64,000 nucleotides of DNA from Candidatus Saccharimonadota bacterium (GTDB taxonomy: Bacteria; Patescibacteriota; Saccharimonadia; Saccharimonadales; SLHW01), in the NCBI GenBank assembly GCA_050486305.1, contig JBJHDA010000001.1:179071-243070 (forward strand), written 5' to 3'. Under the pieces are notes generated by a model. The model worked only from the letters and a program-made list of their open reading frames with translations, made no database searches and was not told where the DNA came from. Of this stretch, positions 10,160-58,680 are shown in pieces; the stretch's first letter is position 1, and each line of letters opens with the position of its first letter. The position numbers and the translations under genes were made by a program.

Positions 10160-10165
10160 CGATCG

Positions 10166-38951: not shown

Positions 38952-39056
38952 GCGACAAAGTATAACACATATATTCAAATATTAGAATGTTTGCATATAC
39001 AAAAAAATAATGCTATTTTTGAGACATAGAAACGTAATACAAGGATTGCAAAAAAC

Positions 39057-40117: not shown

Positions 40118-40120
40118 GCT

Positions 40121-40552
40121 ATGGAAATTCTTGCAGTTTTTTTTGCGATAACAATCCTATTCATTGTGTTGTTAGCGATGAAAAAAGTAACAACTTATCG
40201 CTTCTGTGTTTTATGTGTTAGCGTTAGTCTTAGTTGGGTCGGACTCCTTCTGTTGCTCCAGCTTGGTTTTTTTGAGAATGTCGCTCTAGTTGCCTTGCTG
40301 ATGGGCCAGAGTGTTGTGGGTTTATACTATTTTGCAGAAAAGCGGCTGCCGCAGCAGTATATGGTCTTTCGCCTCGCTGGCCTTCTAACGCTTACGTACG
40401 CTGCTTATGCGATTCTTATCGGTTTTAATCTGCTACCCTTGTTTTTGCTTGTTCCAGTCTGGTCTATAAGCGGCTTACTTTATGCCTACAGAAATACACC
40501 GCGAGTAAAATCAACGGTAGAGCACATTTTGGCTTGTTGCCGCGACTGGTAG
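40121..40552 (+). CDS. Membrane protein with intramembrane CxxC (CVLC) and C-terminal CC
   Basis: 143 aa, 4 TM. RFCVLCVS in TM2, ends HILACCRDW. Confidence 0.5.
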   Translation: MEILAVFFAITILFIVLLAMKKVTTYRFCVLCVSVSLSWVGLLLLLQLGFFENVALVALLMGQSVVGLYYFAEKRLPQQYMVFRLAGLLTLTYAAYAILIGFNLLPLFLLVPVWSISGLLYAYRNTPRVKSTVEHILACCRDW

Positions 40553-40561
40553 AGGGTGCAT

Positions 40562-43982: not shown

Positions 43983-44060
43983 ATTTTTGTATGCTCAACC
44001 TTACTATATAAGCCGAGTATACACCATAAGCGTTTTCTGTTTAAGTATTTACCGCTTATG

Positions 44061-44474
44061 TTATGCCCAAGCTGTTAGGATAGCCGATGCCACCAGTATG
44101 CCGACAAGGTAGTAGCCTGTATCAATCGCGGTGAGCTTATGCGGTCGGCCAGCGAATATCGCGTTGTTTAGCATGGTAGCCCCGACAAAGCCAAGCCACA
44201 GCCAGGCACCCGTGGCTAGGCTTTCGCCAATTGTTCCTACTCCGATGAGTGCTAAGACATGCGCTAACACGTAGCACAAAACAAACAGTAGTATAAAAGT
44301 GGCGATAAACGGTCCGGCACTCGGCGAATCTGACTTTTCCTTCAGTTTTTCAGCCATTCCTGACAGTTTCGTCCATTGCTTGGCGAACAGTACCGTGTAC
44401 CAGAGCCCTCCGATCAAGAAAAAGACGACAGTGGCAACCAGTACTGCCAGTAGGTTTACATCGACATCGAACAT
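44061..44474 (-). CDS. DUF1761 family membrane protein
   Basis: 137 aa. VNLLAVLVATVVFFLIGGLWYTVLFAKQW... is typical of DUF1761. Confidence 0.6.
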   Translation of the reverse strand: MFDVDVNLLAVLVATVVFFLIGGLWYTVLFAKQWTKLSGMAEKLKEKSDSPSAGPFIATFILLFVLCYVLAHVLALIGVGTIGESLATGAWLWLGFVGATMLNNAIFAGRPHKLTAIDTGYYLVGILVASAILTAWA

Positions 44475-44572
44475 CTTGATCCCTCCGCTACTTACTATTA
44501 CGTAGCATTATACTACGCTAGTGCTTACCGAGTCACGATGTTATCCGCTGCACCGACGTTATTTGGCTACCG

Positions 44573-45235
44573 TTAGCTGTTTTTTGCTTTTGTCCGGACA
44601 AGGTGCGAGGCGATGAAAGCGACGAACAAGCCAAATATGACGGCTCCTGCAAACATGGCAAATATGCCGACTGCCCTTCCCCCGGAGGTCATCGGGTATA
44701 CTTCGCCGACACCGGTATTCGTCATAACCTCAGAGATAAACCAGAAACTGTCATAAAAATTATTAACAAACGGGTTTATGTGTTGCTCGAAGTAATAAAA
44801 TGCCAGCGACCCACCAAGCAGAACAGTACCCAGCATCGTAACGATCAGTGCCATTCGCGTTTCCTTAAGGATACGGCCGAGCGACCGAGAAAAGAGACTT
44901 ATTCTCGCGATCATGCTCGTCATTCTAATTATTCTGAGAACCCTGATCAGCATCAGACCCCTTAGAGCCTGCGTGCCAGTAGCAGTAACTGGAATTGATG
45001 CTAGAATTTGCCACCAGTTTTCTTTCATGAATTTCTTTTTCGCCCTGCTCTCAGATAAGCGTACAAGGAATTCTAGACCAAACACCAGCGCAATACCCAG
45101 GTCGATTATCCGGACCATCACCAGCGCTTCACCGGTCAAATCGCCTGTTAGCTCAAGCAACAGCAAGCCAACACTGATGAGCGCCAGGCTAACGAGTAAA
45201 GAATCATTAAATATCCTGATTTTGTTTGTATTCAT
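44573..45235 (-). CDS. Voltage-gated-type ion channel family protein (atypical selectivity filter)
   Basis: 220 aa. S4-like LIRVLRIIRMTSMIARISLFSR, pore helix FWFISEVMTNTGVGEVYP (TGVGE instead of TVGYG), final TM. Confidence 0.65.
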   Translation of the reverse strand: MNTNKIRIFNDSLLVSLALISVGLLLLELTGDLTGEALVMVRIIDLGIALVFGLEFLVRLSESRAKKKFMKENWWQILASIPVTATGTQALRGLMLIRVLRIIRMTSMIARISLFSRSLGRILKETRMALIVTMLGTVLLGGSLAFYYFEQHINPFVNNFYDSFWFISEVMTNTGVGEVYPMTSGGRAVGIFAMFAGAVIFGLFVAFIASHLVRTKAKNS

Positions 45236-45309
45236 TACTCATATAATACATGAGAGGCCACTTTTTATATAACCATAAGCTGACCCCTGAGCTCGTGTAT
45301 AATTTAAAT

Positions 45310-45702
45310 ATGGTACACGAAGACATCCAGGCGTATAACGACTCACTAGCTGAAGGCGATAAAGAAATAGGCAAACTGCTTTGCAAAGAGATCGATCGTA
45401 GCTTGCCAAGAGCGGAAAATAAAATATGGCACGCCCACCCTGTCTGGTTTTTAGACGGCAATCCGATCGTCGGTTACAGCAAGCTAAAAGACTGCGTCCG
45501 GCTGATGTTTTGGAGCGGCCAGTCGTTTGGTGAGCCGGGCCTATCGCCAGAAGGAAGCTTTAAGGCTGCTGAAGCTCGCTACACTGATGCTAGCCAGGTA
45601 GATGTAGAGGATTTGAAGCGTTGGCTCGAAAAGTCAGAAAAGATTCAATGGGATTACAAGAACATTGTTAAACGCCGCGGCGAATTAGTGAGATTGAAGT
45701 AG
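45310..45702 (+). CDS. DUF1801 (YdhG-like) domain protein
   Basis: Trimmed to MVHEDIQAYNDSL...KIWHAHPVWFLDGNPIVGYSKLKDCVRLMFWSG. TATAAT lies 6 nt upstream of the ATG. Confidence 0.6.
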   Translation: MVHEDIQAYNDSLAEGDKEIGKLLCKEIDRSLPRAENKIWHAHPVWFLDGNPIVGYSKLKDCVRLMFWSGQSFGEPGLSPEGSFKAAEARYTDASQVDVEDLKRWLEKSEKIQWDYKNIVKRRGELVRLK

Positions 45703-45817
45703 GTATCGCCTCGGTTAATCGTTGGCGCCCCTGTTCAAACCGGTAAGGTAACGAGCCCTTTTCTTTAGGCCGAGTCACTATACTTTGTTGATAAGTACAG
45801 TAAGTATAATAAGTCTC

Positions 45818-46387
45818 ATGAGTAAGAGCATTAAAGAAAGGCTAACTGGAGGACACCCCAACTCACTTGGCGAAGTCGTAGCTGTAACAGAAAATGTCCT
45901 AAAGGATAGCAGCAGGCAGCTGTTTAATGAGCTTTGTGATACCTACAATTCAGATAACGAAGTTGTTCGCTTGCGTGTCAGTAGTGCGTTAAAAAGGGTT
46001 TGTGGGCTTCACCGCGATTCGCTGTCGGCGAGTGTTCAACCGAAACCTGAATGGATACTCAATAGATTTGATTGGCTAATTAAAGATATTGGATGGACCC
46101 TGGATCAGCCTTCTGCAAAGTGGGCTATTGCTCAAATTATTCAGGAACTTCAGCATAAAATAAATAAAGAGCAACGCGATAAAGCTATAAAGCTACTTAA
46201 AAACAATCTAGAGACTGAAGCAGACTGGATTGTGCAGAACACGACAGCCGACACCTTGGCTGACTTTGCTGCTAGTGACGTCGAATTAAAAAGATGGTTA
46301 GCTCCTAGACTAGAAAAAATGAAAAAAGACAGAAGAAGATCAGTATCATCTAAAGCTGCAAAGTTACTCAAAAGCCTAGATGGCTAA
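45818..46387 (+). CDS. Hypothetical helical-repeat protein
   Basis: Trimmed to MSKSIKERLTGGHPNSLGEV.... TATAAT lies 7 nt upstream of the ATG. HEAT/alkylation-repair-like helical character, by eye only. Confidence 0.45.
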   Translation: MSKSIKERLTGGHPNSLGEVVAVTENVLKDSSRQLFNELCDTYNSDNEVVRLRVSSALKRVCGLHRDSLSASVQPKPEWILNRFDWLIKDIGWTLDQPSAKWAIAQIIQELQHKINKEQRDKAIKLLKNNLETEADWIVQNTTADTLADFAASDVELKRWLAPRLEKMKKDRRRSVSSKAAKLLKSLDG

Positions 46388-46415
46388 ACTTTGAAGTTCA
46401 GTTCTGGCTTGGGTA

Positions 46416-46452
46416 TACAAAAAGTCAGAACCGTTTTCACCGTTCTGACTTT
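46416..46452 (-). terminator. Hairpin terminator (better on minus strand; may act bidirectionally)
   Basis: AAAGTCAGAAC...GTTCTGACTTT 11-bp stem. The minus-strand reading is followed by TTTTTG. Confidence 0.45.
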
Positions 46453-46489
46453 GCCTGCTCAATCTTGGCTCAACACACTGGTCTAGTAC

Positions 46490-46527
46490 GAAAATAAAAA
46501 ATCCAGTAGTGTGAATGCTTACTGGAT
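46490..46527 (-). terminator. Rho-independent terminator downstream of NERD-helicase gene
   Basis: ATCCAGTA-11 nt-TACTGGAT stem, followed on the minus strand by TTTTTTATTTT. Confidence 0.55.
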
Positions 46528-46548
46528 ACCCTGTAAAATTTATACTAT

Positions 46549-46575
46549 TGGCTCCGCGTACTGGTCTAGAACCCA
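46549..46575 (-). other. tRNA 3'-half-like fragment (possible degenerate att repeat of tRNA-Asn 3' end)
   Basis: Minus-strand TGGGTTCTAGACCAGTACGCGGAGCCA: T-loop-like TTCTAGA, 7-nt acceptor strand, discriminator G, CCA. About two-thirds of positions match the last 27 nt of the tRNA-Asn at 55457..55531, in the same orientation. No 5' half is present. Confidence 0.35.
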
Positions 46576-46616
46576 TAAACAGGGGTAAAGTGAGACAAAT
46601 GAGACACCTGTGGCTA

Positions 46617-48215
46617 CTATTTGATATTTTTGCCCGTAAAGACGATTAATCGCGATCGTGCTCTTGTCATGCCTACAAGTAGCGCCTCCTCTTTGTCTTC
46701 TTTAGAGAAAACGTCGGTACATATTACGACTTTACTATCGAGGCCTTTTAAGTCGTAGGCATTGCCGTTGATTATCGAGTTTGATTTCTCGAATTTTTCC
46801 CACTCTACATCCCTGACCAAAGTAAACGTTACACCGTCTTTTAGCTTAGTGTTTTTCCTATTTCTTTCTGACATTACGCTTGTAGAGTGTTTTGAGATGC
46901 TGACAACCATGATTTCCCTAGGCGCAACCCCAGACTTAAGTAGTTCATTTATTTTGCCTACTACTTCTTGGGGGTACTTGCTATAGTCCACGTTTATTCC
47001 TTTATACGGAATTTTATGTATCTCAGGTTCTATACCAAGAGGATTTCGCCTTACTTTACCTACTCGTAATGGTGTCATTTTTCTAATGTAGGCATTTATG
47101 CTGGCGCTGTTTCGATAGTTGTATTTCAGGGGATATAAAACGACATCGTCTCTTTTTATTAACTGTTCTAGCGTGCTCCTCTCACTTCTTCCAAATGTAT
47201 CTTGGTTCAGGTCAATATAAATTCTGAATCTACCGCTAATAAAGCCACCATTGAGATAACCTTCTAGAGTTTTTATTTCATCATTATTTAAATAATCTTG
47301 AGCCTCATCCAATATTAAGTAATCATATTTATCATGGTCTACGCTGAGCATTGTTGTTGTCGTAACATGAACGTATTTTGGTTTATGGTTTAATCTTGCA
47401 GTTACATCGAAGGCAACTTTGTTCCTGATAGCTCGATTGAAGCAAACATAAAGTGTCTTTACGCCAGCTTTTTCATTTTCCACTAGCTGCTCGACGGCCA
47501 GTATAGTTTTACCCGAGCCAGGTGGACCTTCTACAACCATCCTTTTTACAGCTGCTAGAGCATCAAATGCAATATTTTGTTCCTCGCTTAATAACAATAC
47601 TTTTTCGTCGACAGCAGAGCTAATATCCCTTATATAGTCCTTATAATTAGGAACTAATATTTCTTTGATCTTTTCCTGAGTGTTATCTGAGAGGGAACGA
47701 TGTCCTCCGAAGCGATTTTGAGTATAAGCTATAAGTCTACTCACGTATTTTCGTGGATTAAGCATAAAACCTGTATCGAAATATTGCTCTATGTCCCATG
47801 CTGTATCGGGTGCTTTGTTTAGCTTGTACTCCGGGAATGCACATGCATAATGACCAAGTGGATTTTGTTCGAGCGCAACTCCTCTACTCTGCAAGAAGCG
47901 CCAAAGCCCATAGAAGTTACTTTTAGCTTGACCAAAGGGGTCTATTTTGTGCTGACTACCCCAGTGATCTTTCGTATACCAGATTCCATCTTCTATCGAG
48001 ATTTCACCACCCTTAACTTCTAGTACGTATATGCCAGCAGACCCCACAAATACAAAATCAATTTCGCGGTCTTGCCCTCTATTTGGTGTAAAGGAGCAGC
48101 TTGCGACTACAAAACTAATCTTGCCCTTTAGCTCAGAAGATCTGACCGTTTCGAGCACACTCAATACTTCTTTTTCTACTGAAGGCATGCGTTTCTGAGT
48201 GCCGTATACAATCAT
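46617..48215 (-). CDS. NERD-domain nuclease fused to SF1 (DUF2075/UvrD-like) helicase; Nhi-like
   Basis: 532 aa. NERD pattern REIDFVFVGSAGIYVLEVKGG, Walker A GPPGSGKT, Walker B YLILDEAQDY, C-terminal helicase motif LLVGMTRARSRLIVF. Confidence 0.8.
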   Translation of the reverse strand: MIVYGTQKRMPSVEKEVLSVLETVRSSELKGKISFVVASCSFTPNRGQDREIDFVFVGSAGIYVLEVKGGEISIEDGIWYTKDHWGSQHKIDPFGQAKSNFYGLWRFLQSRGVALEQNPLGHYACAFPEYKLNKAPDTAWDIEQYFDTGFMLNPRKYVSRLIAYTQNRFGGHRSLSDNTQEKIKEILVPNYKDYIRDISSAVDEKVLLLSEEQNIAFDALAAVKRMVVEGPPGSGKTILAVEQLVENEKAGVKTLYVCFNRAIRNKVAFDVTARLNHKPKYVHVTTTTMLSVDHDKYDYLILDEAQDYLNNDEIKTLEGYLNGGFISGRFRIYIDLNQDTFGRSERSTLEQLIKRDDVVLYPLKYNYRNSASINAYIRKMTPLRVGKVRRNPLGIEPEIHKIPYKGINVDYSKYPQEVVGKINELLKSGVAPREIMVVSISKHSTSVMSERNRKNTKLKDGVTFTLVRDVEWEKFEKSNSIINGNAYDLKGLDSKVVICTDVFSKEDKEEALLVGMTRARSRLIVFTGKNIK

Positions 48216-48315
48216 TGTCCTGGTATCATATCACGCGTGTGTTGTTCATTAACTTCGACAATTAAGCAACTAGCTTGTATTGTTTATGTTCGAGTTGTCC
48301 AAGATCTCTTAATGG

Positions 48316-49533
48316 CTATGTCTTGGAAAGATTACTGATTAATGCATCTATTATGAGCTTAATGCCGTGCCAGTCCTGCTCCTTGATTAAGTTATTATTC
48401 TTTTGCGCTGATTTTAGCTTATCTTTGAACGCTTGCTGTATCTTCGATTTCTCAAGGAGCTCCCCTTGATACTTACCAAGTTTATTCATGTACCCAGTCC
48501 ACTGGACTTGCCTGAATTCGCCTTTAGTGTTTTTGAGGGTATCTTCACCAAGGTAAAGTTCAATTGCTCCAGCCAGTCCGTTAATGTTCATTTTTGCGTT
48601 TCCATTGGGGCCTATTGTCGGATAGTTATTGGCCAATTCAATGTCAGGATAATGCATAACTCTGTAGTTTGCAGGCAGTGAGAATGTTTTTAACGCTGAA
48701 GTAGCCTCATGTGCAGCTGAATCATTATCAAAAATCGCTATAATCCTGTTTGATATGCCTGCTGCAGCAAAGCTTTTCAATGTTTTGACCAAAGCACTAG
48801 CTCCGCCTTCAGTTTTATAGTTAGTGTCAAGAAATTTAATATAGTTTGTGAGGTGTGGGTATAGAAGCTCAATCGACTCTTTCAGGACCCTACGATCAAA
48901 GACTCCTTCAGTAAGAACGATTGGCGGGGAGCTATATCGCTGCATATTACCTGCGGCCTCACCAAATTCAACCATGGAATCGTCATACCAGCCTTCATAG
49001 GCAAACTCGCTTACATCTAAAGTTACGTTTGACATGTCGTCAATATTTTTTAGGCTGTAATAGAGTGCAAAACAGGAATCATACTCTAGGATATCTAAAA
49101 GTTTTGTCTTATTCTCTTCAGAAAGCCTTTTATTGCCGTTATAGGAGCTTAAAAGCTCGCTAATCTGACGATTCTTTTCCGAATAGTATTCTTTTAAGAG
49201 TTTATCGTTAACGGAAGGGGCCCTTTCTAGCTCGTAGCCAGCAACCTCCTGAAGAAAAAGCCTAAAGGTTTCTTCGCTGTAGCCGAGCACATTCAAGCGC
49301 TCTTTTAGCTCCTTCGCCCTCCTAGCAAAAAACATAATAGAGAAGTTTTCTCCATCATCCTCATAGTCTTTATACGCATTTAATTTTCTATCTTTGATGA
49401 TGTTTATAGCTTCGTCGCCAGAGGCTTTAATGATGTCGTCTTTGCTAAATAGGCTCATTATCGAATAGTCTAAGTCATTCCGCCATTGGAACACCTCTTT
49501 ATCGTCTACATATAGATAAGCAAACACACTCAT
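48316..49533 (-). CDS. Toprim/DUF4435-like putative nuclease with unknown ~190-aa N-terminal domain
   Basis: 405 aa, ATGA overlap with the upstream gene. The C-terminal half has PPIVLTEGVFDRRVL (Toprim Glu) and RIIAIFDNDSAAHEA (DxD). No P-loop. Confidence 0.55.
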   Translation of the reverse strand: MSVFAYLYVDDKEVFQWRNDLDYSIMSLFSKDDIIKASGDEAINIIKDRKLNAYKDYEDDGENFSIMFFARRAKELKERLNVLGYSEETFRLFLQEVAGYELERAPSVNDKLLKEYYSEKNRQISELLSSYNGNKRLSEENKTKLLDILEYDSCFALYYSLKNIDDMSNVTLDVSEFAYEGWYDDSMVEFGEAAGNMQRYSSPPIVLTEGVFDRRVLKESIELLYPHLTNYIKFLDTNYKTEGGASALVKTLKSFAAAGISNRIIAIFDNDSAAHEATSALKTFSLPANYRVMHYPDIELANNYPTIGPNGNAKMNINGLAGAIELYLGEDTLKNTKGEFRQVQWTGYMNKLGKYQGELLEKSKIQQAFKDKLKSAQKNNNLIKEQDWHGIKLIIDALISNLSKT

Positions 49534-50705
49534 AAGTTAGCCCTATTCGATTTTTTGCTTAAAGGAGTGCGGTTTTTTTTGACGATTTTCTTTTTATTAT
49601 CGAGGATCAGTTTTTTCAGGTCTTCTTCAGATTCATACGCCTTTATTCGACCATTTAGGTACCCGAGTCGGTATGAAATACCGTCGCTCATAAGGCGCCA
49701 ATTGGTTTCTTGCAGGATATCGTTGACTAGCTTCTTTAAGGTTTTCCTGCTGTCGTAATCGGCTCGATCTGATTTACTGTCTAAGCAGCTGAAGCCTACA
49801 CGTACATCTTGTCCAATCTCTGGTTTATCGAGGGTAAACTCAATATACCCCGCTTCTTCAAGTGGTTCAGATAGTAGTGGTATCAGTTCAGCAATCTTTG
49901 GTTTTTTTATCTCTTTTACTGCGTCGTATATATGCTTGTTGTCTCGCTTTTCCTTCATCTCCTCGCCTAGTCGTGCCATAGTTTCGAAATCTCGTGTTAT
50001 TTTGAAGAGTCGCTCTCGGAATTCTTTGTCTTCGAGACAAAAATGATACCGGTCTTTATCGAAATCGGGGTCAGGCTTCTCTTCCCTACTTGAATAGCTC
50101 ATCTTCTCTTTAAAGCTATGACTGCAGTTAGTGCATGAGTATGTGATTGTGATTGATTTTTTGGTCTTGCTTGTTTTATGTGTCACCTCACTCTGACATT
50201 TCGGGCAAAGGGACGGCTTTACTTCCCGTGCTTCTCCGTCTTCCCAAAAAGCGCTGTTTTTCTCGCAGTGTTGACACCGAAGCATAAATAAAACTTCTTC
50301 GGGGTCGTCAAAATCGTATTCTTCGCCTCGGTGCATGAGAGATTTATCGATGATTCGCATCCCCTTCTTGTTGCAATGGCGGCAGTACGGTTCTTCCGAT
50401 AGTCGCGCGTTAGCTATCTGCTCGTCCTTCGCTTCGTCGCGAGCCATCCAATCATTGATTGTGTTTTCACGTTGTTCATAGCGGCGAAGCAACTTATTGC
50501 CGACCGTTTCCATGTAGAAGATATTCACCAAGAACGCATTGCCTGGCCTATCGATTTTCTCATTTTTGGGTAGTTTACTTTTAAATTCAGAGCAGAATTT
50601 ATCGTAATAAGCCTTGCCACGGCGAGCAGCATCGACAGTCAATCTGTCGTAGAGATATTCATAATGATGGCGTTCTTTTAAGTGCATATATACGTGAACA
50701 ATCAA
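49530..50705 (-). CDS. Double zinc-ribbon protein, unknown function
   Basis: 391 aa (TTG at 50705, or ATG at 50687). Four CxxC pairs: CRHC...CQHC and CPKC...CTNC. Charged helical C-terminal half. No NTPase motif. Abuts the effector stop codon. Confidence 0.6.
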   Translation of the reverse strand: MIVHVYMHLKERHHYEYLYDRLTVDAARRGKAYYDKFCSEFKSKLPKNEKIDRPGNAFLVNIFYMETVGNKLLRRYEQRENTINDWMARDEAKDEQIANARLSEEPYCRHCNKKGMRIIDKSLMHRGEEYDFDDPEEVLFMLRCQHCEKNSAFWEDGEAREVKPSLCPKCQSEVTHKTSKTKKSITITYSCTNCSHSFKEKMSYSSREEKPDPDFDKDRYHFCLEDKEFRERLFKITRDFETMARLGEEMKEKRDNKHIYDAVKEIKKPKIAELIPLLSEPLEEAGYIEFTLDKPEIGQDVRVGFSCLDSKSDRADYDSRKTLKKLVNDILQETNWRLMSDGISYRLGYLNGRIKAYESEEDLKKLILDNKKKIVKKNRTPLSKKSNRANL

Positions 50706-51224
50706 CTACATAAGATAAAGCCAGCTGAGTGAAACTGCTGCTGATGCTCCTCCAATAACGAAAAGCATCAGCGCATCATTAAAATGCTGGTGCTTGTTCG
50801 TAGCGATACACGCAGATACATGGACTTGAGAAAGCAGTTCCTCTTCATAGGCTTTACTCGTCAACGTCTTCATTTTCTTTTTATACGAAGTAAATGGCAT
50901 TTCTTTGATGTGGTTAAAGTACGTTAGTGATAACTGATCTTCAGTAATAGACTGCCCCTTGTTAGACAAACTCGAGCGTAAAGACCGCAAACACTTAAGT
51001 AGGCCGTATATCAAAAAAATATAAGCGAGCGTAATTAGTATCACTAGCAGGATTCCGACGTCCAGGTATTTTTCAGAGAGTTGCTGTAAAAAAAGTGGGG
51101 TAACGAATGCCATGAAGGCGCCCTGGAGAGCAAAAAATATTCCTAATTTTTGATCGACTGCTCTTATCCACTCGTGAATACGAGCTAGGTTCTTTTCGTA
51201 TACAGCAACTTTATCAAATGTCAT
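50706..51224 (-). CDS. Pycsar-type transmembrane effector-like protein (3 TM)
   Basis: 172 aa, ATGA overlap with the cyclase gene. N-terminus ARIHEWIRAVDQKLGIFFALQGAF (the x-D-x-K-then-TM pattern recalled for Pycsar TM effectors), two central TM and one C-terminal TM. Confidence 0.6.
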   Translation of the reverse strand: MTFDKVAVYEKNLARIHEWIRAVDQKLGIFFALQGAFMAFVTPLFLQQLSEKYLDVGILLVILITLAYIFLIYGLLKCLRSLRSSLSNKGQSITEDQLSLTYFNHIKEMPFTSYKKKMKTLTSKAYEEELLSQVHVSACIATNKHQHFNDALMLFVIGGASAAVSLSWLYLM

Positions 51225-52057
51225 GACAGCATACCGTCCTGTACTTTATCTTTACATATGTCGCACCATAGTCCTGGTGCGTAATAAACCCTATCATCTT
51301 TAATATCATCGTTAGTACTAGTGTCAAAGCTTTGCCACAATTCTGAGTCGGGTTGTGGGTTTCCTGCTAGGTCATGACCGCAATGCATAATCGCATACCT
51401 ATGCTTTGTGTTGAGTGCTCTATAGGTAGCTTCCGAGATTACTAGCATTGAACCTTTGGTTGGGTCAAAATACCTATCAACCTCGTAGATGTCTTTAGAT
51501 AATGATGCGACTTTTGCTGCGTTATTTATCAAGCGCCCCGCCCAAACTTCATTATTGTTGCGCGGTCCTCTTTTGCCCATTCGTTTAACAAGCAGTTTAT
51601 CGATACTTATTCCTGCCTTGAAGTTAAATACATGTTGCTCATCTTGGAATTTTGGCCTGATATGTTTTCGGAAAAAACTACTGAAGGTTAACGCAGCAAC
51701 TAAAGCGCGAAAAGGTGCATCTTCTCCTTCAAAAATTCCAAATGCACCGTCTCCCTTGATGTCTATATATTCAGCTTCAATGCCTTCGAGCGAAAGAACA
51801 TCTATCAGCGTTTGAGTGAAGTAATCATAAATTTTTGCCATTGTTTTAGAGTGTTTTTTGTAAGACATCTTCGAGGAACGATCAAGATCAATAAATAAGC
51901 AAACAAACTTTTCATCACCGCCTACCCATACTGGCGATTCAAGATATGATTCTTCATAGATTCGCTTTATAGAACTTATTTCTTCGATGCGAAAATTATC
52001 GTATCGATATTCTGCTTTGTTTTTTAAGTCTTTATTGATATCGTCGATTGGTTTCAT
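51221..52057 (-). CDS. Class III nucleotide cyclase-like protein (Pycsar PycC-like candidate)
   Basis: 278 aa. FVCLFIDLDRSS (metal Asp strand), IDIKGDGAFGIFEG (K-x-GD), NEVWAGRLINNAAKVAS (G-x-x-V/I-N-x-A-x-R/K-like). Cys/His-rich C-terminus HCGHD...WCDICKDK. Confidence 0.6.
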   Translation of the reverse strand: MKPIDDINKDLKNKAEYRYDNFRIEEISSIKRIYEESYLESPVWVGGDEKFVCLFIDLDRSSKMSYKKHSKTMAKIYDYFTQTLIDVLSLEGIEAEYIDIKGDGAFGIFEGEDAPFRALVAALTFSSFFRKHIRPKFQDEQHVFNFKAGISIDKLLVKRMGKRGPRNNNEVWAGRLINNAAKVASLSKDIYEVDRYFDPTKGSMLVISEATYRALNTKHRYAIMHCGHDLAGNPQPDSELWQSFDTSTNDDIKDDRVYYAPGLWCDICKDKVQDGMLS

Positions 52058-52070
52058 ACTAGTCCTTTAG

Positions 52071-52703
52071 CTATATAGTATTCCTTGATGGTCCTGTTAG
52101 CACCTGAACCACCCTCCCTACAATCACTGCGTCCGACTGATCTTCTTCGTGAAGAAAAATAGGGCCAAAATCTTCGGAGGATTCTGAAATTAAGGCAACT
52201 TGATTGTTCAGTGGGTCTGGGTAGAACTTTTTTATATTCGCCATCCCATCGACAACAGCAACGACGTAGTCACCCTCGACTGGCTGGAATGACTTGCTGT
52301 CAACTACGACAAAGTCACCATCATTTATTGGCTCGCCTTGTACTCTTGCCCTATTCATAGACATGCCTTTGGCCCTAAGAGCGAAAAGATCGGTTCGATT
52401 GTTTGTTCGTAAAAGCTTAGAGGATACTTTTAGGTGTCCTTGAACTCTTTCATCTGCAAATATGTCAGCAGGACCACAGTTAGCTGAACCTACTATAGGT
52501 ATAGCCACGAGCTCAAAATTTCTGTTTGTGTTTTCCGCCATACCGTATGAGAGCATAAAACCTTTAGCCTTCAGCTTGTCAAGGTGATATTTAATAATCT
52601 GAGGACTCTTAGCTCCGACTTTTTCTGCTAGTTCACTCAAACTGTAACGTTCGATGCTTTCTTCCCTCGCTATATTAAGTAGCTTTTCCTGTATTCTATG
52701 CAT
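52071..52703 (-). CDS. LexA/S24-family repressor-peptidase (wHTH + S24 domain)
   Basis: Trimmed to MHRIQEKLLNIAREE...LSELAEKVGAKSPQIIKYHLDKLKAKGF (wHTH). C-terminus LRAKGMSMN (Ser) ...GDFVVVD...VAVVDGMANIKKF (Lys). Confidence 0.75.
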   Translation of the reverse strand: MHRIQEKLLNIAREESIERYSLSELAEKVGAKSPQIIKYHLDKLKAKGFMLSYGMAENTNRNFELVAIPIVGSANCGPADIFADERVQGHLKVSSKLLRTNNRTDLFALRAKGMSMNRARVQGEPINDGDFVVVDSKSFQPVEGDYVVAVVDGMANIKKFYPDPLNNQVALISESSEDFGPIFLHEEDQSDAVIVGRVVQVLTGPSRNTI

Positions 52704-52709
52704 ATATCG

Positions 52710-52718
52710 ATTATAACA
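52710..52718 (-). promoter_or_regulatory. Extended -10 (TGtTATAAT) 6 nt upstream of the repressor ATG; leaderless-type promoter
   Basis: The minus strand reads TGTTATAAT-CGATAT-ATG. Confidence 0.45.
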
Positions 52719-52892
52719 CAGTAAAGTTTTACGAACGTTGTACATAAAACTATTTTAAAACTACAACTCGTAGCGTATAGTGCAGACATCAGGACGCTAT
52801 ATGTGTGGTCTTGAAATAAAAATTAATGCGAAAGCAAAGGCAAACAAGTATTTACTCTATGCGTTGGCCTTTCAATATAAGGAGGGTACGTT

Positions 52893-53222
52893 ATGTACCA
52901 AAAATTACAAAATATAAACAAGAACAATGACAGGAATACTACGCCTTTTTTGACCAGGCTTGTCGTTTGGCAGAAATCGGCTGTAGTGCCTGGGTTAAAC
53001 CCATCCACCTGGCGAAAAGATCCTTGCGGTGCTTTGATGAGATGGGATCTTTACGGTGATACAACTCCAGGCGGTTTTGGCTGGGAGGTTGACCATAGGA
53101 TTCCGATTGCTGGTGGCGGCGGAAACAGTATTGCCAATCTTCAGGCACTTCAGTGGCAAAATAATCGAAGCAAAGGTCGCAGTAGTTCACAGGGTTACTG
53201 CGTCATTACCTACAGGAGCTGA
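52893..53222 (+). CDS. HNH endonuclease
   Basis: 109 aa. Strong SD AAGGAGGG. WEVDHRIPIAGGGGNSIANLQALQWQNNRSKG (H-N-N/H pattern). Confidence 0.75.
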   Translation: MYQKLQNINKNNDRNTTPFLTRLVVWQKSAVVPGLNPSTWRKDPCGALMRWDLYGDTTPGGFGWEVDHRIPIAGGGGNSIANLQALQWQNNRSKGRSSSQGYCVITYRS

Positions 53223-53224
53223 CC

Positions 53225-53689
53225 ATGTCAAAAGTAAAAAAGTCAAAAACGAATGTGGCAGGCCTCAGCGCTGTTTACAGTGGCGTACTGCAAAACCTAT
53301 CAATGATGCAGTCTGCCGACAATGCCATAGAATCAAAAGCCAGTGGTGTCGTTGCTTTTTCATTAACAGCCATTGCGTTATTGGTAAGCAATATCCAGGA
53401 GTGGCATCTTATTGCTGTATCAAGCTTATTCATTTTGATCGCAGCACTTTATTTGGGTGTTTGGTGTCTGCGTATACGAAATTACCGTAGCGCAACCGTT
53501 GTCTTTGAGGATAATCCCGATTATTTCAGCAAAGACAGCGAACAGCTCGTGAAGCAATTAATATCAGATGCTGAAGGAGCTAACACCGATGCGTCAGCCA
53601 TTCTTGATAAAAAATCATTAGCTTTCCGGCGGGCGCTTATATTATTCGTGGTCGGTACTTTAGTCGGTATATTTTCACTTAATTTTTAA
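53225..53689 (+). CDS. 3-TM protein resembling the Pycsar-type effector at 50706..51224
   Basis: 154 aa, starts 2 nt after the HNH stop. Same layout as the effector: polar N-terminus with D-x-x-x-x-K, two TM, CLRxxxxRS after TM2 (WCLRIRNYRS vs KCLRSLRS), C-terminal F-x-x-AL-x-LFV-x-G TM. Confidence 0.5.
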   Translation: MSKVKKSKTNVAGLSAVYSGVLQNLSMMQSADNAIESKASGVVAFSLTAIALLVSNIQEWHLIAVSSLFILIAALYLGVWCLRIRNYRSATVVFEDNPDYFSKDSEQLVKQLISDAEGANTDASAILDKKSLAFRRALILFVVGTLVGIFSLNF

Positions 53690-53713
53690 CTCGTAGCAAT
53701 ATAAGGAGCAGCA

Positions 53714-53854
53714 ATGTCAGAAAAATCACCAAAGCAGAATCCCCTACCGAAGCCGAACAAGACTCGTGTATACAAAGGCACAGGAAGGCCAGCCGTGCGG
53801 CAACCACTTCCGCCACCTAATCGGACTAGACCATATCGTAAGGGCTTGAGGTAA
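53714..53854 (+). CDS. Possible 46-aa basic Pro-rich micro-protein
   Basis: Below the ORF-track cutoff. AAGGAG 5 nt upstream of the ATG. Translation MSEKSPKQNPLPKPNKTRVYKGTGRPAVRQPLPPPNRTRPYRKGLR. Confidence 0.3.
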   Translation: MSEKSPKQNPLPKPNKTRVYKGTGRPAVRQPLPPPNRTRPYRKGLR

Positions 53855-53866
53855 TCATTCACACCT

Positions 53867-54310
53867 ATGGCGGCACCGAAGGTAAGAAGAATTCTAAAGC
53901 GTTTATTGCAAGATCCTGAATTTCAGGAGTTATCTGCCAAGGCTCAGGCTGATCCGAAGAACGTAAAGCAATACGTCATGCAGGCTCGAAAGAGATTCAA
54001 TCTATCACCCTACTGGGAAATTTTACTCGAACATATCCTAATACTCGGTAGTTTTAACGAAAAAATTTTACACAGCGGCTTAGCGATCGAGCGCAGTCAT
54101 GACCCTGTCACAGGTCGCGAATACTTTAAGATCGTCGTCTTCCCGGAAACAACACAAAAAGAAGTAGTTGCTACATACGGTCGCATTACAAAGCAGTATC
54201 AGCAAAGCGAGCAAACTATTGATGTGCGCTCAGCCAAACGTGATGAAGTCGAGTATCGTGCGCTCCAGCTTCATTTAAAAGGAAAAAACAAGGCACATCA
54301 AGCGTGGTAA
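53867..54310 (+). CDS. Hypothetical protein
   Basis: 147-aa ORF with no recognisable motif. Confidence 0.45.
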   Translation: MAAPKVRRILKRLLQDPEFQELSAKAQADPKNVKQYVMQARKRFNLSPYWEILLEHILILGSFNEKILHSGLAIERSHDPVTGREYFKIVVFPETTQKEVVATYGRITKQYQQSEQTIDVRSAKRDEVEYRALQLHLKGKNKAHQAW

Positions 54311-54758
54311 CTGGGGCTCGAAGCAGTTTGCCTTCAAGGGTCTTCTCAAATGCGGCAGCTGTGGTGCTGATGTCATTGGTGAGGAAAAGTTCAAAAGACT
54401 AAAAAGCGGTGATGTGAATCGTCATGTGTACTATCGCTGTACTAAGCGAAAAGATCCGAATTGCCCAGAGCGATATATCAACGAAAAAGTATTATGCGAA
54501 ACGCTGATGCAATTTATAGAGAAAGAAGCCGATAATTTGGATATAAGCAGTTCCCTGCGTGCAAAGGTAGAGCAACACACGGAAGCCACACGGTCATTGC
54601 TTGACCATTATAGTGTGAAGGTCAGCCTAGCCAACCCTTTGAGCGAATACGCCCGCTATGTACTCACAAAAGGCATCGAAAAGGATAGGCATGAGCTGGC
54701 CAAGGGCATACAGCAACGGCTTCTATTCAAGAACGGGAAGTTAAAGATCAAAGGCTAA
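54279..54758 (+). pseudogene. Truncated large serine recombinase (only zinc-ribbon + coiled-coil C-terminal part)
   Basis: The frame is open from 54279 (TAA at 54276). Reads ...KRGNWGSKQFAFKGLLKCGSCGADVIGEEKFKRLKSGDVNRHVYYRCTKRKDPNCPERYINEKVL..., the recombinase zinc beta-ribbon pattern. The resolvase catalytic and recombinase domains are missing, and there is no ATG before the GTG at 54414. Confidence 0.6.
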
Positions 54759-54761
54759 CTA

Positions 54762-55142
54762 CTATTGAGTTAGTTGAATGACAATCATTGTTCCGGCTAC
54801 AAGTGCGACAATCGGGAAAATTAGATATAAAACGATAGCTCTAGCTGCACTTCCTATTCTAGAGCTTATTGCTTTCCTGTCTTTATCGGAAATTGCAATT
54901 TTTTCTCCTTTTTCCGTGAGCTCCAAGCCCTTGAATTTATAGCTCCAGTCTCCGATTGATATGCCTCCAGAAACACTTCTCGTTATTGCAAGATTCTTGC
55001 TTATAAGATAGCTCACGGTATTTTCACCATACGCATCAATTGCTGAATCATACCTGTAGCCAGTGCTGGAGTTGTCTAATATTGTGTCTGCGCACTCAAT
55101 AGCTTTTCTGTTTTTAGCATAGTGGTATAGCCTCTTTATCAT
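54762..55142 (-). CDS. Hypothetical tail-anchored membrane protein
   Basis: 126-aa ORF with C-terminal TM AIVLYLIFPIVALVAGTMIVI. Confidence 0.45.
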   Translation of the reverse strand: MIKRLYHYAKNRKAIECADTILDNSSTGYRYDSAIDAYGENTVSYLISKNLAITRSVSGGISIGDWSYKFKGLELTEKGEKIAISDKDRKAISSRIGSAARAIVLYLIFPIVALVAGTMIVIQLTQ

Positions 55143-55400
55143 AATGTGTACATTCTAATATTAATTACATTATTATCTATATCTATTATATAAAATCTTT
55201 TTTAACGGGGGCTGGTAAAGCAACAAGGTCTGCTTTATGCTCACTGGATAGTCATGAGCTAGAGCAGTCTAAGTCGGAACGGAATTACGGAGGTTAGAGT
55301 GCTAGCTGCGTAATGTTTACTGGTTCTAGCACAGCTAGCCACTTATTTTATGATTATGGCAATCGGTCATGAACCCGGTAACAGATGAGGGGTCATTTGA

Positions 55401-55435
55401 CAAAAATGAAAAGACCAGGTCTAGTAACCTGGTCT
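55401..55435 (-). terminator. Rho-independent terminator after tRNA-Asn
   Basis: AGACCAGGT-CTAGTA-ACCTGGTCT 9-bp stem, followed on the minus strand by TTTTCATTTTTG; 21 nt downstream of the tRNA. Confidence 0.65.
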
Positions 55436-55456
55436 ACCTCTGTTGATGCTGAGTTT

Positions 55457-55531
55457 GGCTCCCGGGGCCGGACTCGAACCGGCAACCTATGCGTTAACAG
55501 CGCACCGCTCTACCATTGAGCTACCCGGGAA
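55457..55531 (-). tRNA. tRNA-Asn (anticodon GUU), CCA encoded
   Basis: Reverse complement TCCCGGGTAGCTCAATGGTAGAGCGGTGCGCTGTTAACGCATAGGTTGCCGGTTCGAGTCCGGCCCCGGGAGCCA. Anticodon loop CT-GTT-AA; clean cloverleaf. Confidence 0.95.
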
Positions 55532-55654
55532 TATCGTTATTAGACTGCTGAATTATACCGAACTGTTTGGATTACTTCAAACAGTTCTTAGCGTATAGCA
55601 AATGCGGGGACACTGGCAAGACAGCTATATGCTGTTCAGCGTAGCTATTATTTA

Positions 55655-57211
55655 CTACCTGAAAGGGTTATGATTGCGTTTACTAGCCAGTATTGCTGAT
55701 ACTGACCAGCCTTGGATTAGTTGAGGAGGTTGCTCTACGAGATGAAGGATATCCCTGTGTGAATCATATACGTAAATCTCGCTATTGTTTAGTTCTACGC
55801 GGTCAACACTGTCGCCACGCACGTGCTCAGGAAAGCAATTTGTTTCTTCTACGATTTTAAATAGTCTAGATTCGATATCCTCCGCTATATCGGTGTAGCC
55901 ATGTTTATACAAGCCGTTAACTATTTGTTTTGTGTCCCACATCCAAATCAGTCCAGTATGATATCCGCCCGGATTGTAGCCTTTTTCTGAGCGGGCTAGC
56001 GTACGTACACCATAAGGGGCTAACATGTCATCACTGGTAATTGTCTCAATGACACCGTAACGTTTTGCGATGGTTTCGCCGTCAATATTGTCAAGAATCC
56101 GGGTCTGGAGCAGATGCCCCATATTAGATGAACGTACTTGAACTTGACGTAGGCTGCCTTTCTCATCTCTGTCCGTGGCAAGCGCAAAGTACCCGCCGTT
56201 CGGGTCGTCGACCCAAAATTTCTCAAGCACTGCCCCGCGTAGCTGCTCAGCTTTTGAGCGTAGTCTGTTGGCTGTTTCTGTGTCATTACAGTGACTTTCG
56301 AGCGTTTCCGCAGCATCAATAAGTGCATCATACGCGAGCCCTTGAACCTCGATGGAGGCAATTCCGGCATCGTGGTTAGCCAAACTCCCATCAGCATGCA
56401 CATACGCTTTCGCAGAATCTTTCCAAGCTTGGCTTGCCATGCCGCCCTTCTGGGCGCCATTTTTAAACTCTAACAGTCCTTCTGGGTTTTGGGACATCCT
56501 ATTTTCTAACCATTCGACAGATAGCCGCAGGCTATCGATTATTGTTCTCTCTTGCTGGTCCAAGGCTGTGTACTGGCTTTGCAGAAAAGCCGGCTCTTTC
56601 CTCGAATGTGTTGCAATAGCAGAAATGAACTGCGGGGTGGCGTCAATCGAGCCGTAAAACGGGAAGCCCCAACCGAGCCTTTCAGAAAACTTTACCCCGA
56701 TGGGATCGTCTGCCGCCCGGTTTAACAGGATGATTCTGCCTGGCTCCTCTTGTCGAAAGGGAGTGCCGGGCATGTAAGTTTCGTGTTTCAGTCCTTGGGT
56801 TTTTGCTAGGTCTATAATCGTAGCTGGCAGTAACGCTGGATAATGCTCGTGCAGATCTAGCGCAATCCTAAGAGCATCTCTACCATGTACGACCTCATAT
56901 TTCCGCAACGCCTCAATATCGGCATTTTCTTCAGTAGATAGAGATGCTACTGCAGGACCTCGTGTACCTATGTATGAGGCATGATCGACCTGACAAAGGC
57001 GTAACAGCTCTCGGACTGCTGAGGCGGGGCGGCTTGGGTGCTGCATACTTACATCTTCTATGTGTACTACGTTTTCGTGGGGCGATAGCCAGTTGTAGCT
57101 CCGATATAGCTCAGTTAACGCGATATTAGCCGGTTGCTCAATTAGTCGTTGCGGCAATTCATCGATGGTAAGAATCGGCGGTTTTATTTTTTCTTGCTCA
57201 AAGTTGTCCAT
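55655..57211 (-). CDS. (alpha/alpha)6-barrel glycosidase, glycogen-debranching (amylo-alpha-1,6-glucosidase/GDE_C)-like
   Basis: 518 aa. HGRDALRIA, FYGSIDATPQFI, WKDS...HADGS, GYHTGLIWMWD patterns typical of GDE_C-type enzymes. Confidence 0.6.
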   Translation of the reverse strand: MDNFEQEKIKPPILTIDELPQRLIEQPANIALTELYRSYNWLSPHENVVHIEDVSMQHPSRPASAVRELLRLCQVDHASYIGTRGPAVASLSTEENADIEALRKYEVVHGRDALRIALDLHEHYPALLPATIIDLAKTQGLKHETYMPGTPFRQEEPGRIILLNRAADDPIGVKFSERLGWGFPFYGSIDATPQFISAIATHSRKEPAFLQSQYTALDQQERTIIDSLRLSVEWLENRMSQNPEGLLEFKNGAQKGGMASQAWKDSAKAYVHADGSLANHDAGIASIEVQGLAYDALIDAAETLESHCNDTETANRLRSKAEQLRGAVLEKFWVDDPNGGYFALATDRDEKGSLRQVQVRSSNMGHLLQTRILDNIDGETIAKRYGVIETITSDDMLAPYGVRTLARSEKGYNPGGYHTGLIWMWDTKQIVNGLYKHGYTDIAEDIESRLFKIVEETNCFPEHVRGDSVDRVELNNSEIYVYDSHRDILHLVEQPPQLIQGWSVSAILASKRNHNPFR

Positions 57212-57240
57212 AATGCTTATCTAATCTATTATCATTATAG

Positions 57241-58617
57241 ATGAGTAAGTCAGTTCACGTAACACAAAAATTGAAAAAATCAGAAATACAAGAGTTGGTT
57301 AATGATGCAGAGTCTATTCTTGACCAGCTCATTACGGATAGGGGTATTTATGCTTCAAGTAGCGAGGGCTGGAAAGGGGTCTATCATGCCTGGTTTGGTC
57401 GTGATAGTGCAATTACGGCAGATCTTATATCTTCTGCGCTTTCACTGGGTGGAAGCACCAAGCTGGCGAAACGAGCACTGGATGCATTACTGTCCTTTGC
57501 TCACTGGCAAGGCACAAAAGACGATGTAAAAACGGGCCAAGAGCTCGGGAAGATACCCCATGAGATAAGAGAAATTCACAAGGAAAACGAAGAAATTCAC
57601 AGCGTTTTACATGCTGCAAATACCAACAAGCTGCCATGGTATGTAGATAAAGGTTCCGGACTAATGCTTAATTGGGACAGCTGTGACAGTACTCCGCTCT
57701 GGATAATTGCAGTCGTTCGATTGCATAAACGGCTTGGAGTGGCGATTAACAAACAAACGAGCGAGCGTATAAGAGCAGGGCTTTTATGGTGCTTGCGCAA
57801 CCTGGAGCAATGTAACGGCCTCGCATGCTTTGTTAGTGCAAGGGAGCAAAAAGGACGGATATACAGCGGCCTAGACAACCAAGGATGGAAGGACAGCTTG
57901 CATATTTACCAATACCCCGATGGTTCTCTTGCAAGACACCCAATAAAAGATATTTTGATAAACGCGGAAGTTTGGACTGCTTTACATCTGGGTGCAGAAG
58001 TATTTCAGCCTCACGACCGTCAATTTGCGGAAGAGTTAAAGAAACAAGCAGAGCTGTTAAAGCGCCGCATTAATACATACGACAAGGGTTTTTTGTACGA
58101 CACAAGTGAATACGAGCAGCCATTTTTTGCTGAAATAATAGATGGTGATAACAAAAAACTTGCACGTACGACCATCGATATCCCGGCATGTCTGTGGGCA
58201 AATTATCAAAACGAAGCGGCTCTTGCTAGCGATGCGATCCCCTACATAGTAAGGCGCACAATGAGTGAGGATATGTTTAATCCCCTGGCTGGCATACGAA
58301 ATTACGGCCTTGGCACAGAGTTTAAGCAAGGCACAGGCTACCATGGCGGCTCAAACGTTTACTGGCCGTTTATGTCTGCGTTGGTGTCGGTTGGCTTTAA
58401 TGAGTTTGGGTATAAGGGTGAAGCGAAGAAGGTCGCATCTGCACTATTGACCGCTATTAAGGCCAATGGCTCTAATATCGAAATGTTCCTAGAAGAGCCT
58501 GACGGTTCATTTGCTAATTGGCATCATCCAACAAAAACAAAGCACCAAAGCGCAGTAGATCAAGCCTGGACTGCTGCAGGAGTGTATTACTGCGGGCATA
58601 TGCTACTCGCAGATTAG
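57241..58617 (+). CDS. (alpha/alpha)6-barrel glycosidase, GDE_C/GH15-like (paralog class of the divergent neighbour)
   Basis: 458 aa. YHAWFGRDSAITADL, DSTPLWI, GWKDSLHIYQYPDGS, YHGGSNVYWPF, DQAWTAAG. Confidence 0.6.
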   Translation: MSKSVHVTQKLKKSEIQELVNDAESILDQLITDRGIYASSSEGWKGVYHAWFGRDSAITADLISSALSLGGSTKLAKRALDALLSFAHWQGTKDDVKTGQELGKIPHEIREIHKENEEIHSVLHAANTNKLPWYVDKGSGLMLNWDSCDSTPLWIIAVVRLHKRLGVAINKQTSERIRAGLLWCLRNLEQCNGLACFVSAREQKGRIYSGLDNQGWKDSLHIYQYPDGSLARHPIKDILINAEVWTALHLGAEVFQPHDRQFAEELKKQAELLKRRINTYDKGFLYDTSEYEQPFFAEIIDGDNKKLARTTIDIPACLWANYQNEAALASDAIPYIVRRTMSEDMFNPLAGIRNYGLGTEFKQGTGYHGGSNVYWPFMSALVSVGFNEFGYKGEAKKVASALLTAIKANGSNIEMFLEEPDGSFANWHHPTKTKHQSAVDQAWTAAGVYYCGHMLLAD

Positions 58618-58680
58618 ACCAAGGAACAACATTAAAGTTGTAATTTATGCTATACTTCGGGTTAGTCTTGGGACTATTTT

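Follow-up and report, generated by a model that had tools for sequence, protein, structure and literature searches.

A probable remnant of a phage-derived integrative element with defence-type cargo, 3' of tRNA-Asn in a Saccharibacteria chromosome

The window analysed here is a stretch of 64,000 nucleotides (nt) from a Candidatus Saccharimonadota bacterium (contig JBJHDA010000001.1, positions 179,071 to 243,070), and its host context is the chromosome of a member of the Saccharibacteria, within the candidate phyla radiation (CPR). Between a tRNA-Asn gene and an ion-channel gene it holds a segment of about 9 kb with genes resembling known defence families and the remains of a large serine recombinase. 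The anchor of this site is tRNA-Asn (GTT) with an encoded CCA, placed by ARAGORN at 55456..55530 on the minus strand, so that the island, which is low in guanine plus cytosine (GC), lies on its 3' side; the original prediction, made from the letters alone, had recognised the gene with coordinates off by one (55457..55531). A promoter-like site for it is found at 55580..55552 and, as had also been claimed, it keeps its own intrinsic terminator (55402..55435, minus strand; terminator scan; fold of -18.6 kcal/mol, z -4.65), the stem of which holds the sequence TAGACCAG. With the island defined for composition measures as 46465..55455, its GC fraction is 0.412 compared with 0.4666 ± 0.0043 in other 9-kb windows (minimum 0.458), more than 12 standard deviations lower, and its tetranucleotide distance to the rest of the window is 0.225 compared with 0.092 ± 0.005 elsewhere (maximum 0.102). 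The segment is an insertion of foreign composition, in agreement with the earlier statement that about 9 kb here are AT-richer than both flanks.

At the end distal to the tRNA, three genes on the minus strand form a module that was compared with its counterpart in L003, an ENA contig found through members of the helicase and the 405-amino-acid (aa) protein at an identity of at least 90% (related contigs carry L numbers throughout). The tRNA-distal gene (46617..48215) encodes a 532-aa protein in which a NERD nuclease-like domain is fused to a superfamily 1 (SF1) helicase (Pfam NERD 1.5e-8, SLFN-g3_helicase 1.5e-9), and which matches the PADLOC model RTasNERD-Hel over its full length (4e-33). 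Next to it lies the gene of a 405-aa HEPN/Toprim-associated protein (48316..49533; Pfam HEPN_Toprim_N 4e-4, PADLOC AriAB Toprim region 4.9e-5) for which no relative of solved structure was found by sequence, and which overlaps by 4 nt the first gene of the module, coding for a 391-aa protein with weak Zn-ribbon matches in Pfam (49530..50705). Amino acid identity to L003 is 92% for the helicase and 85% for the Zn-ribbon protein, and the ratios of nonsynonymous to synonymous divergence (dN/dS) are 0.047, 0.10 and 0.13 for the helicase, the 405-aa and the 391-aa protein, a range of 0.05–0.13 which indicates that the module genes are functional and under purifying selection. Full-length plasmid homologs of the 405-aa protein, annotated as HEPN/Toprim-associated, stand alone, and the module is therefore not shown to be a widespread system; no plasmid homolog of the 391-aa protein was found. 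The helicase shares with Nhi, AbiO and the reverse-transcriptase-associated NERD helicases of defence-associated reverse transcriptase (DRT) systems the presence of NERD and SF1 helicase in one polypeptide. It differs from them in its linkage to Zn-ribbon and HEPN/Toprim-associated proteins and in having no reverse transcriptase beside it, as no such domain was detected in any open reading frame (ORF) of the island (Pfam, PADLOC). To judge from these matches, the trio falls outside all catalogued systems.

Upstream of the module on the same strand are two genes resembling a Pycsar operon, which Tal et al. reportedly described in 2021 as a PycC cyclase plus a PycTM effector. The predicted PycTM membrane effector (50706..51224) scores 35.4 bits against Pfam PF18967 (1.5e-8; cut-off 27.2) and 2.2e-30 in PADLOC, and its start overlaps by 4 nt the end of the gene for the pyrimidine cyclase PycC (51221..52057). 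PycC matches its PADLOC model full length (1.1e-61; positions 6–240 of 248) as well as the structure 8JSZ (5.2e-25), which is the uridylate cyclase AnPycC (PMC11224242). With a PycC and an adjacent PycTM in two overlapping genes, the pair has the features by which Pycsar is recognised, and synthesis of cCMP or cUMP on infection and phage protection are predicted for it. It differs from described Pycsar loci in that a gene for an S24 peptidase or LexA- or CI-type repressor (52071..52745, minus strand; Pfam Peptidase_S24 2.8e-17, phrog_4 repressor 6.9e-20) lies directly upstream of PycC on the same strand; the score of this protein against the LexA family TIGR00498 is 72.9, under the cut-off of 110.95. 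A second difference is found at the C-terminus of PycC, where the putative metal motif HCGH...(36 aa)...CDIC takes the place of C-x-C...C-x-x-H in AnPycC. Clade D uridylate cyclases carry a zinc finger (PMC11224242), and the motif in the window may be a zinc site with a different order of ligands.

Four further ORFs fill the remainder of the island. On the plus strand, a 109-aa HNH endonuclease-like protein (52893..53222) matches Pfam HNH at 4.6e-4, below the curated cut-off, and phrog_1035 endonuclease VII at 2.1e-8, and is followed by a 154-aa, weakly PycTM-like protein (53225..53689; PADLOC PycTM 1.8e-4, weak precomputed PF18967 match), possibly an orphan membrane effector. A 147-aa protein (53867..54310, plus strand), which belongs to the backbone of the element family described below, is 43% identical to a 179-aa protein of L003, with homology that ends at 54229. 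Closest to the tRNA, a 126-aa protein with a C-terminal hydrophobic stretch (54762..55142, minus strand; GC 0.394) has no family match in Pfam, PADLOC, NCBIfam or PHROGs. Domain matches were thus obtained for the whole set of genes named in the original prediction (NERD-helicase, Toprim-like, Zn-ribbon, cyclase, transmembrane effector, S24 and HNH, the last weak in Pfam), and the claimed lack of phage structural and replication genes is likewise borne out, none of these nor any packaging gene being detected in the island with Pfam and PHROGs. No tyrosine recombinase was detected there with Pfam. By homology the cargo genes match defence families, and they would accordingly be candidates for anti-phage activity.

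The recombinase itself is a pseudogene. It occupies 54246..54758 on the plus strand, about 0.7 kb from tRNA-Asn, and retains the tail of the recombinase domain, a Zn ribbon (Pfam Zn_ribbon_recom 2.5e-10) and the C-terminal part, aligning to positions 359–481 of the 651 of the phrog_95 integrase. Its closest homolog is the recombinase of L046, to which it is 56–57% identical; a homolog, P0153, carries PF07508 and PF13408, that is, a recombinase domain and then a Zn ribbon. Homology begins at 54246 and runs through an in-frame stop (54276–54278), after which the current reading frame opens; the C-terminal stump proposed originally is therefore genuine, with its start set too late (54279). A Resolvase catalytic domain was not found in the window by tblastn with the Resolvase segment of L046 (best E 0.43).

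The distal end of the island consists of repeats. A 27-nt fragment resembling a tRNA 3' end had been reported at 46549..46575 and lies within a longer conserved element end (copy W1, 46549..46607, minus strand; nhmmer 4e-24), in which about 35 conserved nt lead into a sequence mimicking the 3' end of tRNA-Asn, made up of a T-arm-like part, a 7-nt acceptor-like part, a G and CCA. On the minus strand (46573..46549) the fragment reads GGTTCTAGACCAGTACGCGGAGCCA and matches the last 25 nt of the resident tRNA-Asn at 18/25 positions, the best non-self match in the window; against the same tRNA-Asn end, the tRNA-Leu and tRNA-Ser 3' ends reach 17/25 and 16/25 and unrelated sequence up to 16/25. The fragment thus aligns better to tRNA-Asn than other sequence of the window does, as had been expected of it, but 7.8% of 500 shuffled windows contain a match of at least 18/25 somewhere, which makes the resemblance borderline alone and convincing only in combination with comparative data. 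Such data are provided by at least 12 copies of the conserved end in seven contigs, with homologs of W1 in L003, L039, L041, L043, L046, L050 and L098. The fragment is 85–94% identical in four other genomes, including at positions that differ from the tRNA, and W1 is closer to the tRNA-Asn of L046 (20/25) than to the resident one (18/25). A two-sequence nhmmer profile missed the resident tRNA-Asn and its downstream region; a seven-copy profile recovers W1 at 4e-24, and its best weak matches, all in register, fall on the 3' ends of tRNA-Asn genes, at E 0.012 in L046, 3.1 in the window and 5.4 in L040. In metagenomes the motif GGTTCKAGACCWG-N6-GAGCCA gave 62 matches to real tRNA genes, all but two of them (60/62) tRNA-Asn, and also many displaced tRNA-Asn halves. 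The fragment is thus real, and is best regarded, on sequence comparison, as a sequence that belongs to the element, is conserved with it and mimics the 3' end of tRNA-Asn, and not as the eroded att (attachment site) duplication of the resident gene that had been suggested. A reading of the repeat as an RNA gene was dropped for lack of a fold (z +0.79) and of an Rfam match, no RNA family being found by Rfam at the fragment or in L003 and L004; with no RNA fold, the conserved end would act as DNA. Partial similarity between the attachment sites of element (attP) and target (attB) would be expected if one recombinase binds both.

W1 is followed by a weak hairpin with a T-run (term1, 46491..46528, minus strand; -8.6 kcal/mol, z -2.2), whose sequence recurs after repeat copies in relatives and is conserved in L003, L039 and L041, and then by a second, truncated repeat copy (W2, 46466..46489, minus strand; GTACTAGACCAGTGTGTTGAGCCA; family profile E 6.3e-5). 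Because the blastn alignment with L003 continues through this copy and stops at 46465, exactly where W2 ends, the distal boundary lies at about 46465 and not at 46549 as first proposed. A strong hairpin with a T-run (term2, 46418..46452, minus strand; -18.2 kcal/mol, z -4.07) separates W2 from a convergent 200-aa gene. The succession of W1, term1 and W2 is most readily interpreted as the scar left at the junction of two tandem elements that inserted one after the other. The exact strings common to the tRNA-Asn side and the distal repeats are GAGCCAA (7 nt) and TAGACCAG (8 nt, within the tRNA terminator). The former is found at the resident tRNA end and in most repeat copies, two of which have GAGCCAT and one AAGCCAA; the latter is the core motif of the distal repeats and has six occurrences across the window, among them one each, on the minus strand, in W2, W1 and the tRNA terminator. 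At the other end of the island, a weak att-like or left-end sequence (CATCTGTTACCGGGTTCATGACCGATTGCCA, 55357..55387, minus strand; family-profile match E 1.7, in register) may be the tRNA-proximal end of the element, and 55352–55384 resembles the sequence right after tRNA-Asn in the L046 island (p ~0.003). The junction on this side, for which the original prediction gave 55143 to 55400 as the probable range, would fall somewhere in 55350–55455, with a correspondingly approximate position of strand exchange. As a separate observation, the same strain is represented by a single other assembly (Logan SRR31311414; 100% identical), in which contigs L002 (= 38969..46580) and L001 (= 46577..59232) overlap by just 4 nt and break exactly at the 5' edge of the fragment; low coverage at the junction, or heterogeneity there, may lie behind this break at 46577..46580.

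Relatives of the hotspot are distant, with ion-channel proteins 65–75% identical, and they show the site in several states. A comparison with genomes lacking the insertion had been proposed, and L040 (a 418-kb contig) provides one: its tRNA-Asn (8485–8559) lies 1.4 kb from the ion-channel ortholog without an island, the tRNA-Asn region is 90% identical to that of the window, and homology ends one base after the CCA. Downstream of the tRNA, at 134 nt, L040 also has an exact 16-nt repeat of its tRNA-Asn 3' end (CCGGCCCCGGGAGCCA, 8694..8709). The terminator behind this repeat shares homology with the flank that comes after a repeat copy of L039, and the whole looks like a classical integration scar left by near-complete deletion of an older insert. 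L003, L039 and L043 have an identical distal flank and therefore represent one species, in which the hotspot holds a 5-kb cassette, a 2.3-kb cassette and nothing, respectively; L041 shows a fourth arrangement, in which the repeat is present four times and the conserved end directly adjoins a truncated type I methylase. Homologs (about 54% identity) of the flanking glycoside hydrolase in L037 and L038 were considered as a source of an empty site and rejected, as they retain only a three-gene synteny block and no tRNA-Asn there; with this hydrolase as query, no close relative was found in genome contigs. The named proteins most similar to it belong to Candidatus Saccharimonadales, and the HIP1 motif, looked at as a sign of cyanobacterial origin, is not enriched.

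L003 is 87% identical to the window over 4215 bp (50678..46465), which cover the module, the fragment, the hairpin and the truncated second copy. The module proteins are 85–92% identical with synonymous divergence (dS) of 0.44–0.87, while the flank proteins are 68–74% identical with dS of at least 3, which indicates recent horizontal transfer. Ahead of the module, L003 carries the homolog of the 147-aa protein and then a ParB-methylase and a large terminase, and the element family is therefore phage-derived; no Pycsar is found in the L003 element. The two elements thus have both ends in common and differ in the middle. L046 has the same layout as the window in 12.2 kb: tRNA-Asn on the minus strand, two small genes, a serine recombinase on the plus strand, methylases, the Shedu protein SduA (4.6e-76) and the conserved end (nhmmer 1.8e-8; 2.7e-17 with the seven-copy profile). 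Its recombinase has the YxRxSS catalytic motif. In L050 the conserved end lies beside an HTH_17 protein, a PDC-S53 helicase and a ParB-methylase. Comparing the neighbours of the conserved end across genomes therefore reveals a different defence gene at that position in each: the NERD-helicase module in the window and L003 (with Pycsar upstream in the window only), Shedu SduA in L046, PDC-S53 in L050 and a type I restriction-modification methylase stub in L041. A side observation concerns a cassette of the same hotspot in L003 (13690..14670, also in L004), which encodes a metallo-beta-lactamase-fold protein with a precomputed Pfam match to the anti-Pycsar protein Apyc1 and no PADLOC match; the window version of the hotspot carries Pycsar, the L003 cassette this Apyc1-like protein.

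We posit that 46465..55455 is quite probably the immobilised remnant of a phage-derived integrative element that inserted 3' of tRNA-Asn, in a hotspot between this tRNA and the ion-channel gene. Relatives suggest that elements of the family, whose end and architecture are conserved, would carry a large serine recombinase on the tRNA side, a phage body (ParB-methylase, terminase) in the middle and a slot for anti-phage cargo at the distal end, and would close with a sequence of about 60 nt imitating the last 25–30 nt of the tRNA-Asn gene, followed by a terminator. The serine recombinase is likely to have served as the integrase. A single deletion, with a junction at about 54230–54246, would have taken away the phage body together with two-thirds of the recombinase, its catalytic part, because homology of the 147-aa protein ends at 54229 and that of the recombinase begins at 54246, both on the plus strand, and because the phage body follows the 147-aa homolog in L003. 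After this deletion the element would no longer have been able to excise, and its cargo, comprising Pycsar, the Zn-ribbon and HEPN/Toprim pair and the NERD-SF1 helicase, would have been kept intact. Upon infection, PycC would be expected to make a cyclic pyrimidine and PycTM then to permeabilise the membrane. The original interpretation of a decayed integrative island with defence cargo beside tRNA-Asn is in this respect sustained by the empty locus of L040, the variable content of the site, the contrast in dS and the recombinase pseudogene.

Several points weigh against this reconstruction. No empty site from a close relative was recovered, L040 being distant (ion channel 65% identical at the amino acid level) with different intervening genes. 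The link between recombinase and repeat is correlative and comes from two loci, the window and L046, and the L046 recombinase is itself frameshifted, being split over three reading frames (9307..10609); long-read sequencing errors are possible, and the gene may in reality be intact. Neither a free or circular attP nor an intact set of attB, attL and attR was recovered. Serine integrases as a rule recombine attP with attB only, and tandem integration by them is unusual. On the tRNA side the junction is defined only to 55350–55455 and tRNA-Asn retains a strong terminator with a loose resemblance to the one after the displaced tRNA end of L040 (p 0.09, not significant). The defence activity of the cargo is a matter of homology. 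Finally, no closely related element was found in IMG/VR, where neither the recombinase stump nor the NERD helicase, used as queries, retrieved any relatives and two DNA motifs gave chance matches only.

A bolder proposal is that the repeats, each a tRNA-Asn mimic with its terminator, are exchange sites of a serine-recombinase cassette system which would swap small defence and accessory cassettes of 0.06–5 kb 3' of tRNA-Asn, and that the trio would be an undescribed anti-phage system. We consider this an outside chance; if true, the cassette system would be integron-like in operation and of different enzymology. Slightly less likely still, and rather doubtful, is that the hotspot remains active with a recombinase supplied in trans from elsewhere in the genome or from an infecting phage, the island being a cassette array with the repeats as exchange sites. 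Arrays in L003, L039 and L041, where two to four units of repeat plus terminator bound segments of 0.06–5 kb, speak for such exchange, as do the 5-kb segment of L003 flanked by an exact 21-nt direct repeat, the three different contents within one species and the different defence gene adjoining the conserved end in each genome. Set against this, no recombinase was found beside the arrays in the short contigs of the relatives, repeat arrays are equally expected as scars of repeated integration and then deletion, and the repeat has no conserved fold of the integron attC type (z +0.79); the portion of the genome inspected is the 64 kb of the window.

We likewise think it improbable, and somewhat more so, that a tyrosine integrase placed the island inside the resident tRNA-Asn and that 46549..46575 is the displaced copy of its 3' end, neutrally eroded since. 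The fragment does have the orientation and register of the tRNA 3' end, at 18/25 positions, L040 shows just such a scar in its exact 16-nt repeat, and displaced tRNA-Asn 3' halves are present on many metagenome contigs. The conservation of the fragment in four other genomes, even where it differs from the tRNA, shows however that it is not decaying and largely refutes this account. Homology to L003 runs through the fragment, which thus arrived with the island, base pairing of its acceptor half (ACGCGGA) with the tRNA acceptor stem's 5' strand is not possible, it is nearer to an L046-type tRNA-Asn than to the resident one, and a tyrosine integrase is found neither in the window island nor in L046. 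The idea that the segment is a native, fast-evolving, AT-rich accessory region with a tRNA resemblance by chance might draw on the 18/25 match, which taken alone has a probability of about 0.08 of arising by chance somewhere in the window, the lack of a tRNA-like match at the fragment in Rfam and the failure of the two-sequence unit profile to reach the resident tRNA, yet it can be dismissed as very improbable given that L040 has no such region, that dS of island genes is three- to seven-fold below that of flank genes, that a recombinase pseudogene is present, that conserved ends lie beside defence cargo in seven contigs with the same tRNA-Asn-to-repeat layout in L046, and that the motif is specific to tRNA-Asn.

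As a remnant of an integrated element, the island resembles tRNA-gene-associated islands and prophages, among which the asn-tRNA islands of enterobacteria are well known, in its insertion 3' of a tRNA, its foreign composition, the recombinase gene on the tRNA-proximal side, the tRNA-like repeat at the far end, the tandem scars and the content that varies between strains. It differs from them in having a large serine recombinase instead of a tyrosine integrase, in a distal repeat that is only 72–80% like the tRNA end and is conserved in the element where theirs is an exact duplicate of the host gene, and in its host, a CPR bacterium with a source contig of about 630 kb. The recombinase remnant is like the integrases of phiC31, Bxb1 and A118 in its Zn ribbon and C-terminal region, and the partial similarity between element end and target is as expected for one protein binding attP and attB half-sites; unlike these integrases it has no catalytic domain, and its attP and attB are putative. 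Targeting of tRNA 3' ends and tandem arrays are atypical of large serine integrases. Rousset et al. reportedly described in 2022 the defence hotspots of temperate phages and satellites, including P2/P4-type prophages, with which the window shares a fixed att-adjacent position holding a different anti-phage system in each relative. It departs from these in its unrelated phage family and other host phylum and in the deletion of its phage body, after which only the hotspot survives. An integron would have an IntI tyrosine integrase and a structured attC, both absent here (z +0.79; no Rfam match), and a prophage would have the structural, packaging or replication genes that the island lacks, in contrast to the related L003 element with its large terminase (TerL) and ParB-methylase. 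In soil metagenomes, L047, L065, L081, L105, L117 and L146 each carry a tRNA-Asn 3' half, from anticodon loop to CCA, in two or three identical copies; these show tRNA-Asn to be a frequent target of tandem integration in unrelated high-GC bacteria.

As a defence island or prophage remnant at a tRNA gene, the island is of a known kind, in an unusual host, and it leaves current concepts unchanged; its particular features are the CPR host, the serine recombinase, the conserved tRNA-Asn-mimicking end in arrays and the uncatalogued module. Genomic islands with defence genes have already been reported in Patescibacteria (PMC12455944), and little is yet known of how CPR bacteria, whose genomes are very small, resist phages (PMC6509639). 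In the present case, imported defence genes at a recognisable hotspot take up about 9 kb in a contig of about 630 kb, and the presence of Pycsar and of a NERD-helicase module under strong purifying selection suggests real phage pressure on these episymbionts. Together, tRNA-Asn and the conserved end offer a handle for finding more such islands and their temperate phages in Saccharibacteria metagenomes.

Outside the repeats, the hotspot probably reaches as far as the ion-channel gene. The 200-aa gene facing term2 (45785..46387, plus strand) is also low in GC (0.408) with a sub-threshold HEAT_2 match only, has no homolog in any related locus compared and is probably older cargo of the same hotspot. 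Further out on this side, a copper-handling cluster (38969..43982) with a DUF411 protein, a multicopper oxidase and a YNCE beta-propeller protein with a cupredoxin domain has native GC and is conserved with L040 and L043. On the other side of tRNA-Asn, the divergent genes 55655..57211 and 57241..58617 encode distantly related MGH1-like glycoside hydrolase proteins and are followed by a glycosyltransferase of family GT4; this block is the sole synteny retained with more distant Saccharimonadales.

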